Made by a program: the position numbers and the translations under genes
IMG/VR virus record: IMGVR_UViG_3300011334_000072
Location: 1-26,408 of that record
Source: a virus
Taxonomy: Duplodnaviria > Caudoviricetes
Length of the DNA: 26,408 nucleotides
Reading direction: 5' to 3' (one strand)
The notes under the pieces: model-generated
Databases searched by the model: none
Told to the model about the DNA's origin: nothing
Seen by the model: only the letters and a program-made list of their open reading frames with translations
Part shown: positions 3,418-8,667 of the stretch, one piece after another
How positions within the stretch are numbered: position 1 is the stretch's first letter
How the letters are laid out: the number at the start of each line of letters is the position of its first letter

Positions 3418-3698
3418 CCGAGCAAGAAATAGCATTTATAGAAGCCAATATTATAAACTTTGAGGCAGTTGCTTTAGGGTTTACTAAAAACATAGAAAGA
3501 GAAATACTTGAGGAGTATGCGAATTTATATCGTAAATATGTCAACAAGGATTTTAATTTCAATTCGTGGTGTGGCTCTTGCGTCTTTGATATGCTTAAAA
3601 GATTGTCAGCACATTACGAAGGATTAAAGTATATTGCCAAACTCAACCAACCAAAACCAAACGATGTCCAAACTAAGAATCTGCGCAGTCGGAAGTAG
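3414..3698 (+). CDS. Hypothetical protein with CxxC motif
   Basis: 94-aa ORF, ATGA-coupled, contains WCGSCV. Confidence 0.7.
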   Translation: MTEQEIAFIEANIINFEAVALGFTKNIEREILEEYANLYRKYVNKDFNFNSWCGSCVFDMLKRLSAHYEGLKYIAKLNQPKPNDVQTKNLRSRK

Positions 3699-4680
3699 AC
3701 ATTCAGGAGTTACTTACCATCGCCTGGCATTGCCTTTGTCGGTAATGCAAAAGGAGTACTGCATTATCACAGATACGATGACCGAAGAGATGCTTATTGA
3801 GAAGTCAATAAACGTGGTTGTCGTTAATCGTTTTTGTGAATTGATACCATTGCCTGAATTATTAAAATGGAAGGCTAAGATTGGCTTTAAATTGGTTGTG
3901 GATATTGATGACTATTGGGAATTGTTTAGCCAGCATTTATCTGCGCCTACATATCGGTCTTTAGGAGTAACTCAAGTTATTAAGAATTATATCAAGGTAG
4001 CTGATATTGTTACGACAACTCATAACCGATTGAGGATTGAGATAGTAAAGATTAATCCTAATTGCTTTGTTTTGCCTAATGCTTTGCCATTTGACAAAGA
4101 CCAATTTACTGCGACAAGAAATGTAAACGAATTTGTTAACATTGCACATACGGGGAGCATAACTCATTTTCCTGATATGAGGCAATTAAAGAATCCGATT
4201 AGAGAATTAGCCAAGTCAAAATCATTTAAGGAGTCAACACGAATGCTTCTATGTGGATGGAATAAGTTTAATGAATTTCATTGGAAACAGATGGGCGATT
4301 GGTTTACTGCTGGCGAGAAACTAAACTATAAAATTCTTGAATCAATGCCAGTAGATTTATATATGAATTTTTATAACGAGGCTGATATATTATTAACTCC
4401 TTTATTAGATAATAAATTCAATCGATTAAAATCAAATCTAAAGGCATTAGAAGCTGGTGCTAAACGGATTCCAATAATGGCTATTAAAAGAGCGCCATAC
4501 GATGACATTCCAACGGTGTGTTGGGTTGATAATTGGGAACGAGATATTAAACGAATGGCATTTAGTTCACAAATGAGAACGGATTTTGGCGAGTCAAATG
4601 CCGAATATGTACGGGAACATTATGACCTATTTAAAATTAATGAAGATAGATTTGCTATTTATTCTAAACTAATAGAATAA
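3664..4680 (+). CDS. GT-B fold (GT4-like) glycosyltransferase
   Basis: GVTYHRLALP, VVDIDDYW, VLPNAL, GSITHxxD and FNxxKSNLKALEAG motifs. ATG at 3664 is preferred to TTG at 3634. Confidence 0.85.
   Translation: MSKLRICAVGSRHSGVTYHRLALPLSVMQKEYCIITDTMTEEMLIEKSINVVVVNRFCELIPLPELLKWKAKIGFKLVVDIDDYWELFSQHLSAPTYRSLGVTQVIKNYIKVADIVTTTHNRLRIEIVKINPNCFVLPNALPFDKDQFTATRNVNEFVNIAHTGSITHFPDMRQLKNPIRELAKSKSFKESTRMLLCGWNKFNEFHWKQMGDWFTAGEKLNYKILESMPVDLYMNFYNEADILLTPLLDNKFNRLKSNLKALEAGAKRIPIMAIKRAPYDDIPTVCWVDNWERDIKRMAFSSQMRTDFGESNAEYVREHYDLFKINEDRFAIYSKLIE
4654..4662 (+). promoter_or_regulatory. GCTATTTAT motif, candidate phage late promoter
   Basis: Exact copy of the recurring 9-mer, 19 nt before the ATG at 4682. 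Confidence 0.45.
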
Positions 4681-4681
4681 G

Positions 4682-5428
4682 ATGCCAGTAATTAAATGTT
4701 CAAATTCGAAATGGCGCATCGGGAACGGTGCTTGTATTTATGAAACGGAAGAAAAAGCAACTGAAGTATGGAAGGCTATATTGGCAAGCGGAGAATACCG
4801 TGCAGATATTAACAAGGTTTCTTTTGATTTCGATGACACATTGTCTACGGCAAGAGGTCAAGAGATTGCGAAAAGGGTTATCAGGGAAGGTAAAGAAGTT
4901 TATATTATAACCAGGAGAAATGAATACAATTCGGCTGAGGTTTATCGTATGGCTGAAAGATTAGGGATATTAAAGTCAAGAGTTTATTTTACTAATGGAC
5001 AATACAAATGGATGACAATTAAACGTTTAGGTATTGGAACTCATTACGATAATAACCAAAAGGAGATTGATTTAATTAAGATTAATACCGATACGAAAGC
5101 AATGAAATTTGCATTTGTAGATTCTTACAATGATTATCCTGAGGCAGCGGTTAATAATGCTAAACGTGCTTTAAAATGGGCAGATGAAAATGGTTGGGGA
5201 GAATGTGGAACTCCAGTAGGTAAAGCAAGAGCAAATCAATTAGCAAATAAAGAGAACATTACAAGGGATACGATTGCAAGAATGGCTTCGTTTAAAAGGC
5301 ATCAACAAAATAAAGATGTTAAATATGGCGAAGGATGTGGAGGCTTGATGTGGGATGCTTGGGGAGGTACTGAAGGAATTGAATGGGCAATAAGAAAACT
5401 TGAGCAAATAGATAATGCCAGCAACTGA
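4682..5428 (+). CDS. Fusion protein: short N-terminal domain, HAD-like domain, and a C-terminal Trp/Gly/Cys-rich domain
   Basis: HAD motif I SFDFDDTLS, IITRR, K and HYDN. A separate C-terminal block reads SYNDYP...GWGECGTPVGKARANQLA...GCGGLMWDAWGG. Confidence 0.65.
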   Translation: MPVIKCSNSKWRIGNGACIYETEEKATEVWKAILASGEYRADINKVSFDFDDTLSTARGQEIAKRVIREGKEVYIITRRNEYNSAEVYRMAERLGILKSRVYFTNGQYKWMTIKRLGIGTHYDNNQKEIDLIKINTDTKAMKFAFVDSYNDYPEAAVNNAKRALKWADENGWGECGTPVGKARANQLANKENITRDTIARMASFKRHQQNKDVKYGEGCGGLMWDAWGGTEGIEWAIRKLEQIDNASN

Positions 5429-5948
5429 CAAAGAATTTTTTGATTATGAATTAAGCATCGGAGTTACTCCTGAGAATCCTGACTATTTTAATTTAATGAA
5501 CGGAGTTGCTAACATCATAAAGAATTATTCAAGAAATATAATTGAGATAGGCGCTGGGGTGGGAACATTAGGCGAATGTTTGATTCAAAAAGGTTGCGAT
5601 TATTATGGCATTGAGCCAAATAAGTTTCATAGGGATTTTTCTTATTCAAGAGGCATCGTTTTAAATGACTTATGTAATTATCCTAACCATTGCCAAATGA
5701 TTGTTAGTATCGAAGTATTTGAGCATTTAACCGATGAGCAGATAAGAGATTATTTAAGCAATATTGAATGCCAATACTTTTACTTTTCATCGACTCCATA
5801 TACAACAACGGAAGAATTTGATAAATGGTGGGGGCATATTAACATTAAATCTGAAGAAGAGTGGATTAAACTATTCTCAGAATTTAAATTTACATTAGAT
5901 AAAAAATTAATTATACCGACCGAGTGGTCATTACTTTTTAAAAAATGA
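5415..5948 (+). CDS. Class I SAM-dependent methyltransferase
   Basis: IEIGAGVG motif I, YGIEPN motif II, SIEVFEHL, GHINIK. Confidence 0.85.
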   Translation: MPATDKEFFDYELSIGVTPENPDYFNLMNGVANIIKNYSRNIIEIGAGVGTLGECLIQKGCDYYGIEPNKFHRDFSYSRGIVLNDLCNYPNHCQMIVSIEVFEHLTDEQIRDYLSNIECQYFYFSSTPYTTTEEFDKWWGHINIKSEEEWIKLFSEFKFTLDKKLIIPTEWSLLFKK

Positions 5949-6484
5949 ATATAACAACAACCAAATTGACCGACATAAAGTCGAATCCAAACAATCCAAG
6001 AATTATCAAGGATGACAAATTTAAAAAGTTAGTAGCATCAATTAAGGAATTTCCTCAGATGCTATCTTTAAGACCTATTGTCGTAAACGATGATATGATT
6101 GTACTTGGTGGGAATATGAGGCTAAAGGCTTGTAAAGAAGCTGGACTAAAAGAAATTCCAGTAATAAAAGCAAGTGATTTAAACGAAGAACAACAGAAGG
6201 CATTTATTATTAAAGACAATGTTGGATATGGAGAATGGGATTGGGATATGCTTGCAAATGAATGGGATGCTGAGGAGTTAGTTGAGTGGGGTTTAGATAT
6301 ACCTAATTTTGTAATTGAACCTAATGCAGATGAATTACTTGGAGAGGATAAGAATAATCCAGCTACAATGAAAATAACCTTTGAAAGTGTAGAGCAATTA
6401 CAACAAGCAGAAAACGATATTAGAGAATTAATTGATAGAAAATATAAAGGCGCTTATTTTTCAGTTTCAGCAGGAGAAATATGA
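5945..6484 (+). CDS. ParB/Srx N-terminal-domain protein
   Basis: NPNNPR, LVASIKEF, RPIVV, LGGNMRLKA and IKDN...GEWDWDML motifs. Confidence 0.85.
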   Translation: MNITTTKLTDIKSNPNNPRIIKDDKFKKLVASIKEFPQMLSLRPIVVNDDMIVLGGNMRLKACKEAGLKEIPVIKASDLNEEQQKAFIIKDNVGYGEWDWDMLANEWDAEELVEWGLDIPNFVIEPNADELLGEDKNNPATMKITFESVEQLQQAENDIRELIDRKYKGAYFSVSAGEI

Positions 6485-7083
6485 GATTAGAAAAAGCATC
6501 TAATAAAGCAATAAAATTTGCTTGCTTAAATTTCCATTATGCTAAAGCAGTTCCAACTTATTCAATTGGTTATGCAGTTTTTAATAATAATAACGAATGG
6601 TGTGGAGTAGTTTTATTTGGCGGAGGCGCTTCGGTTAATATGCCAACAAAATTTAATTTAAAAAATGGTCAATATTTAGAATTAAATAGAATGGCTTTAA
6701 ATGGCAAGCAATCTTCTACAAGTAAAGTTTTATCAATTGCAATTAAATTAATAAAAAAAGAATGTCCAACCATAAAGATACTATTTAGTTACGCAGATAA
6801 AGGGCAAAATCATAATGGTATTATTTATCAAGCAACCAATTGGATTTATATAGAAAATATTGAAAGTAGCGGTACTGAATATTTTTTAGATGGAACTTGG
6901 AAACACGACAGAGGTAGATATAATTGGTCGGTAGATTTTAAAAAATTACCTAAAAGAAAGAAGGCTGGTAAACACAAATATGTTTATCCTTTAGATAAAA
7001 GTTTATTAGAGATTTGTAATAAACTTAAAAAACCTTATCCTAAAAATTTGAGCGATAAGGTAGAATCGAACTCCCCTTCTTGA
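6481..7083 (+). CDS. Mom-like (GNAT-fold) DNA adenine hypermodification enzyme
   Basis: NFHY, GVVLFG, LELNRM, SYADxxQxHxGIIYQATNWxY, KHKYVYPL and terminal PYPK motifs characteristic of Mu Mom-like proteins. Confidence 0.8.
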   Translation: MRLEKASNKAIKFACLNFHYAKAVPTYSIGYAVFNNNNEWCGVVLFGGGASVNMPTKFNLKNGQYLELNRMALNGKQSSTSKVLSIAIKLIKKECPTIKILFSYADKGQNHNGIIYQATNWIYIENIESSGTEYFLDGTWKHDRGRYNWSVDFKKLPKRKKAGKHKYVYPLDKSLLEICNKLKKPYPKNLSDKVESNSPS

Positions 7084-7120
7084 CTGGTTGCCAAGTGTGC
7101 TACCACTACACTATTATCGC
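7051..7120 (-). tRNA. tRNA-Gly-like RNA (anticodon ACC), non-canonical, probably not used in translation
   Basis: Minus strand folds as GCGATAA TA GTGT AGTGGTA GCAC A CTTGG CAACCAG TCAAG AAG GGGAG TTCGATT CTACC TTATCGC T. It has a 7/7 acceptor stem, D-loop GG, T-loop TTCGATT and U73. Atypical features are A33, A34, a 3-nt variable region, a G51-A63 mismatch and no encoded CCA. Confidence 0.8.
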
Positions 7121-7129
7121 ATTGATTAA

Positions 7130-7137
7130 CAAATATA
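7130..7137 (-). promoter_or_regulatory. Bacteroidota-type -7 promoter element (TAnnTTTG) for the tRNA-like gene
   Basis: Minus-strand TATATTTG lies 9 nt upstream of G1. Upstream TTTG copies are 16 and 24 nt away, not at the usual ~19-21 nt. Confidence 0.55.
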
Positions 7138-7157
7138 TAAAAATTATGTAAAACAAA

Positions 7158-7568
7158 ATGGCAAACGAACAAAATTTAGTAAGTTTTAAGAAAGGTCAAT
7201 CAGGGAATCCAAATGGTCGACCAAAGAAATACGTTACTTTGTTAAAAGAATCAGGTTATAATATGACCGAGATTGGAATAACAATTCGTAAAATGCTTGC
7301 TATGAATATTGACCAACTTAAAGAGATATTTGATAATCCTGAAAGTTCAATATTAGAAAAGACAATCGCTGGAGCAATGAATAAGTCTTTAAAAAACGGT
7401 TCATTGTATTCAATAGAAACTTTATTAAGTAGAGTATTTGGTAAGCCTAAAGAATCGGCTGACATAAAACAAGATACTGAAATAACTATAAAATTTGCCA
7501 ATGGAGATTACCCTACCGACTCCACACGAGGCGCAGAAAAAAGTATTACAGAGCAAGGCGAGGTTTAG
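7158..7568 (+). CDS. Terminase small subunit (DUF5681-like)
   Basis: N-terminal NLxxFKKGQSGNPNGRPK, C-terminal LLSRVFGKPKE, directly upstream of the large terminase. Confidence 0.8.
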   Translation: MANEQNLVSFKKGQSGNPNGRPKKYVTLLKESGYNMTEIGITIRKMLAMNIDQLKEIFDNPESSILEKTIAGAMNKSLKNGSLYSIETLLSRVFGKPKESADIKQDTEITIKFANGDYPTDSTRGAEKSITEQGEV

Positions 7569-8667
7569 AGTGCTAATGTGCGGGCGAAGATTTGGCAAGT
7601 CATTGATTAGCCAGGTCATTACTTGCGTAGAGGCATTACAAGGGAAGTCAGTTGCCTACATAACTCCGACCTATAAATTAGCTAAAGTCTTTTTTGATGA
7701 TATTGCTTTAATACTTCCTCCCGAAGTAGCAACTTCTAATATATCAGATTTAACTTTTAAATTGGCTACGGGTGGAACAATTCGATTTTTTACGGGAGAG
7801 CGATTAGACAATCTGCGTGGTTTAAGATTTCATTATGTTATTATCGATGAGGCTTCCTATATCCCTAATTTAGAGAACGGTTGGAATAATGCTATAAGAC
7901 CTACCTTAACTGATTATCGAGGCAAGGCGCTATTCCTCTCGACTCCAAGAGGTAAGAATTATTTCTATTCATTGTATTTAAAAGGATTAGAAGCAAACGG
8001 AGAATGGGAATCGTTTAAATATTCGACTTATGATAACCCGTATATTCCTAAAGATGAGATTGATTCAATTAAGCAATCAGCTATTCCCGTAGTTTTTGAG
8101 CAGGAATATCTCGCCAATCCAGCAGAGAACGCTGCGAATCCATTTGGTAGCGATGCAATTAGGAAGTGTACATCGGACTTATCTACCAATATTGTTAAAT
8201 GTTACGGAGTCGATTTGGCAAAGTACTCAGATTGGACTGTTATTATCGGTTTAGATAATAGTGGTAATGTGGCTTATTATGACCGATTTCAGAAGGATTG
8301 GGCATCAACTCAGAACATAATTCGTAATTTACCAAAAGCACCGATGTTAATTGATAGTACTGGAGTAGGTGACCCGATAGTCGAGCAATTACAACGGGAA
8401 GGGATGGATATAGAAGGGTTTAAATTTACAAGTCAAAGCAAGCAAGAATTAATGCTTGGTCTTCAAGTGGCAATACATCAGGAACGTGTACATTATCCCG
8501 AAGGAATGATTAAAAATGAGTTAGAAGTTTTCGAGTATCAATATACATCACACGGAGTAAAGTATTCAGCACCAACGGGATTTACGGATGACTGCGTATG
8601 CGCTTTAGCATTAGCTTGGCGCAAGTTTGATTTTAAGTCAGGCACGGGCAGATACAACTTTGTTTAA
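7501..8667 (+). CDS. terL: Terminase large subunit
   Basis: Walker A GRRFGKS, Walker B VIIDEAS, STPRG coupling motif, nuclease GVDLA...DWT and DDCVCALALA. ATG at 7501 is preferred to TTG at 7495. Confidence 0.95.
   Translation: MEITLPTPHEAQKKVLQSKARFRVLMCGRRFGKSLISQVITCVEALQGKSVAYITPTYKLAKVFFDDIALILPPEVATSNISDLTFKLATGGTIRFFTGERLDNLRGLRFHYVIIDEASYIPNLENGWNNAIRPTLTDYRGKALFLSTPRGKNYFYSLYLKGLEANGEWESFKYSTYDNPYIPKDEIDSIKQSAIPVVFEQEYLANPAENAANPFGSDAIRKCTSDLSTNIVKCYGVDLAKYSDWTVIIGLDNSGNVAYYDRFQKDWASTQNIIRNLPKAPMLIDSTGVGDPIVEQLQREGMDIEGFKFTSQSKQELMLGLQVAIHQERVHYPEGMIKNELEVFEYQYTSHGVKYSAPTGFTDDCVCALALAWRKFDFKSGTGRYNFV

Follow-up and report, generated by a model that had tools for sequence, protein, structure and literature searches.

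The DNA-modifying enzyme Mom of phage Mu uses Gly-tRNA-Gly as its donor and accepts all three E. coli tRNA-Gly isoacceptors; the available text of that study (Silva et al. 2026, PMC13219725) raises, and leaves open, the question of how Mom copes with diverting charged tRNA from translation. In staphylococci, according to the consulted sections of PMC7826273, EF-Tu keeps ordinary Gly-tRNA away from the GNAT transferase FmhB by sequestering it, and the non-proteogenic (NP) tRNAs, described there as a lineage of staphylococci only, escape. How tightly EF-Tu binds is determined by the first three pairs of the T-stem (PMC7826273; PMC3239215), and the accessible part of PMC3239215 holds no EF-Tu binding value for a T-stem with a bulge. 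Glycyl-tRNA synthetase (GlyRS) recognizes an identity set of G1-C72, C2-G71, U73, C35 and C36 (PMC9976931; PMC7826273). A tRNA-Gly-like locus at a mom gene is also in print. The ssrA islands of Dehalococcoides contain a 76-bp "pseudo-tRNA" Gly (DCC anticodon) embedded in a mom homologue (McMurdie et al. 2011, PMC3146451), for which that paper, as far as its available text goes, proposes neither a function nor a link to Mom chemistry.

Here we describe a Mom gene with a tRNA-Gly-like RNA at its end in a 26.4-kb phage record (75%-complete, 33.6% GC). The whole of this DNA, 26,408 nucleotides, was analyzed and is called the window below; the features of the locus are collected in Table 1. Upstream of the locus, the window holds further modification genes: a DNA-methyltransferase-like gene (99-755, PHROG), a glycosyltransferase (3634-4680) and a SAM methyltransferase (5415-5948).

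Table 1. Features of the window at and around the Mom gene and its RNA.
Feature	Position	Strand	Basis
ParB-N domain protein; head of the swappable DNA-modification slot	5945..6484	+	PF02195
Mom-family GNAT, predicted DNA adenine-N6 glycyltransferase, 200 aa	6481..7083	+	PF25680, phrog_1384, 8bv8
tRNA-Gly-like RNA, 70 nt	7051..7120	-	ARAGORN, Rfam, model R1, feature parse
Unpaired A in T-stem (bulge or G51.A63 mismatch); EF-Tu contact helix, family signature	7061..7061	-	feature parse
Anticodon ACC, preceded by A33 not U33	7086..7088	-	sequence, ARAGORN
Predicted Bacteroidota sigma-A -7 box TAnnTTTG; ends 9 nt before RNA G1	7130..7137	-	motif match
Likely terminase small subunit (terS); right slot boundary, outside the system	7158..7568	+	DUF5681 and position before TerL
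TerL	7495-8667		profile searches (Pfam, PHROG)

The protein is confirmed as a Mom-family GNAT, as a preliminary description of the locus from sequence alone had supposed. It matches the Pfam Mom profile PF25680 with 118.5 bits (E 3.9e-34; curated cut-off 27.1) and phrog_1384 (E 1.7e-47), and by sequence it matches the Mu Mom structure 8bv8 (E 2e-11, 28% identical). NCBIfam profiles gave no match above cut-off. A Foldseek search with an AF2 model (pLDDT 88) returned 8bv8 as the top match (E 4.6e-13, TM 0.73), followed by a match at E 2.8e-5. In the sequence alignment with 8bv8, where an offset of +9 was taken for the PDB chain in numbering the Mu residues, His-58, Tyr-59, Arg-111, Ser-124, Asp-149, Tyr-159 and Trp-181 of Mu Mom align to His-19, Tyr-20, Arg-70, Ser-81, Asp-106, Tyr-116 and Trp-140. 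Seven of the eight Mu activity residues inside the aligned stretch are thereby kept; Mu Arg-151 aligns to Gly-108, with Lys-107 adjacent. Among 134 Mom relatives the seven kept residues are near-invariant, with Trp-140 as the exception. Where Mu Mom has an essential HTH-like insertion of ~35 residues, the AF2 model has just a short helix (143-148), and the insertion appears in this model to be shorter than that of Mu. The gene had been described as ending in PYPK, but the ORF runs 12 codons further to a stop at 7081-7083 and overlaps the RNA in antisense by 33 nt.

The element on the opposite strand is confirmed as a tRNA-Gly-like cloverleaf that carries the GlyRS identity bases. ARAGORN calls a tRNA-Gly(ACC) at 7050-7120(-), its sole tRNA in the window, and Rfam RF00005 matches with 40.4 bits, above the gathering score, as the sole Rfam match in the window up to E 5. 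The sequence itself shows G1-C72, C2-G71, G3-C70, U73, C35 and C36. The 70-nt cloverleaf, its identity bases and its being the one tRNA-like element of the window, all put forward in the preliminary description, are therefore upheld. The anticodon loop is CAACCAG, with neither the U33 nor the GCC, UCC or CCC anticodon of a translational tRNA-Gly. The T-stem begins with G-C and G-C followed by a bulged A, in place of the A49-U65, U50-A64 and A51-U63 pairs of the staphylococcal NP lineage; pair 51-63 is broken, so there is no intact 5-bp T-stem. The 3' tail is CAA, and CCA is not encoded, which is normal for the likely host, because all ten Bacteroidota tRNA-Gly genes that were read lack an encoded CCA. 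The preliminary description had mentioned neither the ACC anticodon with A33, nor the broken 51-63 pair, the CAA tail or the TAnnTTTG motif, which lies at the very end of the region that it covered (7137). Single-sequence folding of the RNA is modest (z -1.78, 10/200 shuffles). Support for the fold beyond chance comes from covariation in the family.

The family was collected with a descriptor that yielded 103 distinct candidates, of which 83 were aligned to build the covariance model R1; 11 matches that were not cloverleaves and 9 near-duplicates were left out. R1 scores the window RNA, itself in the training set, with 78 bits. In an alignment fitted to a hand-drawn cloverleaf, 95.5% of the cells are paired and 18 of the 20 pairs have changed on both sides; none of 500 shuffles and no slid control came near this, and the model alignment gives a similar result.

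Features were counted in 105 distinct RNAs from the Mom-first sample, three weak R1 matches (22-24 bits) having been dropped beforehand. C2-G71 and the central CC are present in all 105, G1-C72 and G10 in 104, and G3-C70 and U73 in 103, a conservation of identity bases that is partly by construction, because the seed descriptor required GC...GCU ends and the central CC. Other features of a tRNA are poorly kept: U8 is found in 53/105, U33 in 50/105, a 7-nt loop in 50/105 and the D-loop GG in 63/105. As controls we used 120 canonical phage tRNA-Gly. The pattern that found them already prescribed U8, U33, the T-loop and both acceptor ends, which leaves the T-stem, position 34, the D-loop and the tail for a fair comparison with the family. 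The 5-bp T-stem is intact in 1/105 family RNAs and in 116/120 controls, and the third-last base on its 3' strand is A in 104/105 versus 3/120. Position 34 is U in 74/105 family RNAs, A in 26/105 (controls 4/120) and G in one (controls 36/120). CCA is encoded in 28/105. The near-constant A at the bulge hints, at the level of sequence, at recognition by Mom besides disruption of the stem.

Some copies deviate further. In a set collected with a 5-bp-plus-bulge pattern, 22/80 loci are 69 nt or shorter, which is too short for a D-arm. The copies of Arthrobacter phage BarretLemon and Microbacterium phage MenE have no bulge, and the T-stem of MenE is normal. In GenBank, the single copies in Salinibacter phage B2_17 and MenE are annotated as tRNA-Gly. 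Psychrobacter phage vB_PmaS_Y8A (OQ059336) carries two D-arm-less Gly-identity RNAs in tandem directly behind mom (L591:2162-2226 and 2234-2299). Both have the bulged T-stem, encode CCA and are missed by ARAGORN, and this phage is given in the available text of PMC10434257 as having no tRNA genes.

The linkage of RNA and Mom was examined from both sides. The Mom-first sample comprised 95 viral loci (93 distinct contigs), 80 GTDB loci and six phage records. At the first 15 Mom loci, default ARAGORN calls a tRNA directly behind Mom in nine, and the element is visible by eye in all 15. R1 (>=55 bits) finds the RNA beside Mom at 88 of the 95 viral loci; of the seven misses one is truncated and six are without the RNA, and relaxed ARAGORN on these seven found no tRNA of other identity beside Mom. 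The RNA is also found at 31/80 GTDB loci, including Bacteroidota prophages, Acidobacteriota and Chloroflexota, where it lies at the mom 5' end, and in two of the six phage records.

Searches that started from the RNA gave a matching picture. A 4-bp-plus-bulge pattern provided 80 loci with 1.5-kb flanks, of an estimated 500 or so stretches; 40 further loci with 300-nt flanks were excluded from the counts. Mom lies within 1.5 kb at 78/80 (77 by one HMM, 78 with a second). Seventeen of these loci overlap the earlier collection, and 60 of the 63 new ones score with the first HMM, plus L213 by the second. In 50 of them the enzyme belongs to a second Mom clade, two members of which were verified against Pfam. 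The 5-bp-plus-bulge pattern (80 loci of an estimated 1300 or so) has Mom within 2.5 kb at 75/80, one of them weak (19 bits), with the RNA on the 3' side in 57 and on the 5' side in 18; in four of the five misses the stretch ends within about 110 nt of the match, on the RNA 5' side. With the canonical phage tRNA-Gly pattern, none of 80 loci had Mom nearby by any of the three HMMs. Neighboring genes were followed as well. Among 80 TerL relatives, ten of which hold <1.5 kb upstream, four have the RNA and the same four have Mom; among 79 new ParB relatives, 30 have the RNA and 31 have Mom, the additional Mom locus being truncated. The linkage is seen across Moms best matched by three different profiles, with the RNA 3' or 5' and on either strand. 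The pairing of RNA and Mom is a family trait, and the enrichment of Gly-identity cloverleaves at Mom homologues, which the preliminary description had predicted, is borne out by the viral loci and by the reciprocal and slot controls. In these scans the RNA signature locates Mom loci with about 95% precision.

RNA and gene overlap at most loci of either orientation. The mom ORF of 76/85 forward loci stops within the RNA or beyond it (e.g. L017:3065-3138), and at 25/26 reverse loci the RNA overlaps the tail of the mom ORF in antisense. At forward loci, maturation of the RNA would strip the stop codon from the mom mRNA, a possible built-in feedback.

Sibling phages with TerL 95-97% identical differ in the content of the stretch between ParB and terS (window 5945-7157; loci L427-L450). 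It is filled by a ParB-N6/N4-methyltransferase fusion, by ParB with an ABC-ATPase/GNAT, or by ParB with either Mom clade and the RNA, and it is therefore an exchangeable DNA-modification slot. The swap junctions are close to ParB codon 120-125 on one side and to where terS starts on the other. One such locus, L445, carries an RNA and promoter identical to those of the window behind a clade-2 Mom 29% identical to that of the window. Identical RNAs were also found behind Moms 53-65% identical in five pairs. Strict co-evolution of RNA and protein is thereby ruled out, and the RNA is interchangeable between Mom clades, not lock-and-key. On a quick tree the reverse orientation label changes 17 times, at least 11 of them forced; module swapping at the mom 3' end explains the two orientations as well as repeated local inversion does. 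An inversion within the acceptor stem was ruled out by eye, since the U73-C tail moves with the RNA.

The RNA is optional in the Mom family. On the tree, 34 of 134 Moms are without it and still keep His-19, Tyr-20, Arg-70, Ser-81, Asp-106 and Tyr-116, so that it is not required by Mom. Losses concentrate in gut-associated and Flavobacteriaceae prophage clades (L089-L128). Position 82 of Mom is Lys in 86/100 RNA-bearing and Gln in 24/34 RNA-less members, a difference that may be due to kinship alone. Among 16 cultured phages picked by hand, BarretLemon, B2_17, MenE and Y8A have the RNA beside Mom and 11, including Mu, do not. The ambiguous case among the 16 is the Methylophilales phage Melnitz, in which an odd tRNA-like element (L605:1501-1569) lies ~1 kb upstream of mom; its acceptor is rich in G, it has U73 and a CC within a loop of 8-9 nt, and ARAGORN calls it Trp. 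Two loci of Chitinophagaceae MAGs (L098:3401-3471 and L137:3106-3176) seem to have either a broken Mom match or an RNA shifted by ~300 nt. At L189:1501-1571, on a 54%-complete contig, a family RNA overlaps the start of a terS-like gene. Our own Mom HMMs found no Mom at the L189 and L244 loci, and the L189 RNA is possibly an orphan that remained after a slot swap. Two kinds of candidate were discarded. The strongest R1 matches in A511, AS-sw, Darwin and Bacteroidota hosts are ordinary tRNA-Gly, and a hairpin at the Mu com start (L592:751-790), which resembles a Gly acceptor stem in opening with GCG and closing with CGC-U, is probably a chance match (E 0.5).

TAnnTTTG is the flavobacterial sigma-A -7 box, as given in the accessible text of PMC9723704. 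Across the whole window this motif is at chance level (43 versus 41.6 expected). It lies within 33 nt upstream of 30/38 reverse-strand RNA copies, with a shuffled mean of 1.9 and a maximum of 7 in 1000. Forward-strand copies have it in 0/50 Mom-first and 10/29 pattern-first loci. A hairpin with a T-run stands behind 11/22 reverse copies; the window copy has the T-run only. A sigma-70 scan gave 9 promoter-like sites versus 5.6 expected, its consensus being uninformative for the likely host type, and the terminator scan run alongside it found none. From the TAnnTTTG motif and the prophage relatives we infer a Bacteroidota host. Two sequencing runs, contigs only, share 4-5% of words; one contig of a relative, from an RNA library, spans 7090-7366, without strand or ends, and weighs neither for nor against expression.

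Taken together, the RNA that co-occurs with Mom is probably a dedicated, non-translational glycyl donor for DNA adenine modification. The preliminary description had proposed this reading of the pair, and the sequence evidence supports it with two qualifiers, that the RNA is optional in the Mom family and interchangeable between clades. The kept bases are the GlyRS identity set; the damaged features are the T-stem pairs read by EF-Tu and U33, which decoding requires. In the proposed pathway, the RNA of the window would be transcribed from its own predicted minus-strand TAnnTTTG promoter; in its forward-strand relatives, the RNA would be part of the mom transcript. Maturation would involve host RNase P, 3' trimming and CCA addition, and host GlyRS would charge the RNA through G1-C72, C2-G71, U73, C35 and C36, bases that are present in the sequence. 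With its bulged T-stem A and its defective anticodon loop, the RNA would escape EF-Tu and the ribosome, and Mom may in addition recognize the bulge. Mom would then transfer the glycyl group to adenine N6 of phage DNA, giving 6-NcmdA and restriction resistance, an outcome established for Mu Mom alone. The phage would gain a pool of free Gly-tRNA that EF-Tu does not sequester. The proposal applies the logic of the staphylococcal NP tRNAs, in that the RNA would be charged by host GlyRS, left free by EF-Tu and used by Mom on phage DNA. Several observations count against a donor. Mu Mom works with host isoacceptors and Mu has no such RNA, 34/134 Moms do without it, the BarretLemon and MenE copies are without the bulge, and the L189 RNA is without a Mom on its 54%-complete contig; the window protein, too, has no aligned Arg-151 and an apparently shorter insertion than Mu Mom. 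A more specific version, in which the RNAs are orthogonal, ribosome-excluded tRNA mimics charged with glycine, with bulged T-stem A and D-arm-less forms, preferred by Mom and swapped between clades, seems to us slightly better than an even bet.

The mom gene of Mu is tightly regulated, and Mu has a com gene. The RNA could regulate Mom, either as a decoy that binds the enzyme and inhibits it until late infection or by holding down mom mRNA as a processing or antisense signal. The stop codon in or after the RNA at forward loci, where 5' maturation would cut the mRNA before the stop, and the antisense overlap at reverse loci suit this idea, as does the invariant A, which suggests recognition by a protein. 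We nevertheless judge it unlikely, because C35/C36 and U73 throughout the family would not be needed by a processing signal or antisense RNA, a decoy, once charged, would act as a donor too, and the occurrence of the RNA 3', 5' and on either strand fits a trans-acting molecule. It is less probable still that the RNA is a translational tRNA-Gly that refills a pool depleted by Mom or cleaved by anticodon nucleases of the host. ARAGORN and Rfam do call the window copy a tRNA, U34 in 74/105 copies matches GGA, the commonest Gly codon of the window (242/556), and the MenE copy has its normal T-stem; but the rarity of an intact T-stem in the family, the loss of U33 and of the 7-nt loop in about half of the copies, the many copies without a D-arm and the A33-A34 of the window copy all speak against decoding.

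A third alternative, in which the RNA is part of the packaging genes or the remnant of an attachment site and stands by Mom by chance, has been largely refuted and is very improbable. It often lies just before the small terminase gene, and at L189 it is found at a terminase gene without Mom. However, 76/80 TerL relatives (with the ten short upstream stretches among the 80) have neither Mom nor RNA, and the RNA follows Mom where the next gene is not a terminase; it is also full-length, covaries and differs from host tRNA-Gly. The dedicated glycyl donor remains the reading that we favor.

As to precedent, that Gly-tRNA-Gly is the Mom donor had been stated in the preliminary description and is reported for Mu Mom in the available text of Silva et al. 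(PMC13219725); term searches of their main text, two supplements and 2023 preprint turned up no phage-encoded tRNA. We found no paper that links a tRNA-Gly-like RNA to Mom as donor, in a literature whose subscription journals were mostly outside our coverage. What is already known is the mom-embedded pseudo-tRNA-Gly of Dehalococcoides, in print since 2011 without a function. Under the more specific version given above, the RNA would be a phage-encoded RNA cofactor for DNA hypermodification, widespread on mobile elements. If the donor reading is true, it would offer a testable answer to how Mom takes charged tRNA despite translation, namely by a carrier that EF-Tu cannot hold, and would account for phage tRNA-Gly annotations that are odd or absent, such as that of Y8A. 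A natural tRNA that is charged but avoids EF-Tu would moreover be of use in DNA labeling or orthogonal acyl transfer.

Compared with the known systems, the window enzyme resembles Mu Mom in its GNAT fold, its activity residues and its predicted glycyl transfer to adenine N6. In contrast to Mu, which has no tRNA-like RNA and uses host isoacceptors, the window phage has an RNA beside Mom, and its Mom comes without a com gene or an aligned Arg-151, in a ParB-Mom-RNA-terminase slot. An ordinary phage tRNA-Gly or Rfam RF00005 shares the cloverleaf with the window RNA, which differs in the T-stem bulge, the missing U33, the ACC anticodon and the near-exclusive linkage to Mom. The Dehalococcoides pseudo-tRNA is likewise a tRNA-Gly-like locus at mom in a module with ParB, although it was found in one lineage, lies at the 5' position and served as a primer target (PMC3146451, in its available text). 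Given the R1 matches at the mom 5' end in Dehalococcoidia, it probably belongs to the same family. Closest in logic are NP1-NP3 of Staphylococcus with FmhB, FemA and FemB, in which, as the consulted sections of PMC7826273 describe, GlyRS identity is kept, the EF-Tu contact helix is altered and the partner transferase has a GNAT fold. The NP tRNAs are chromosomal and serve the cell-wall peptide, whereas the window RNA is encoded on a mobile element beside its enzyme gene, with DNA as the proposed target. Their T-stem is weak but intact, whereas the present family has a bulged A and is sometimes D-arm-less. If the donor reading holds, dedicated non-translational tRNAs would extend from staphylococcal cell-wall synthesis to phage anti-restriction chemistry.
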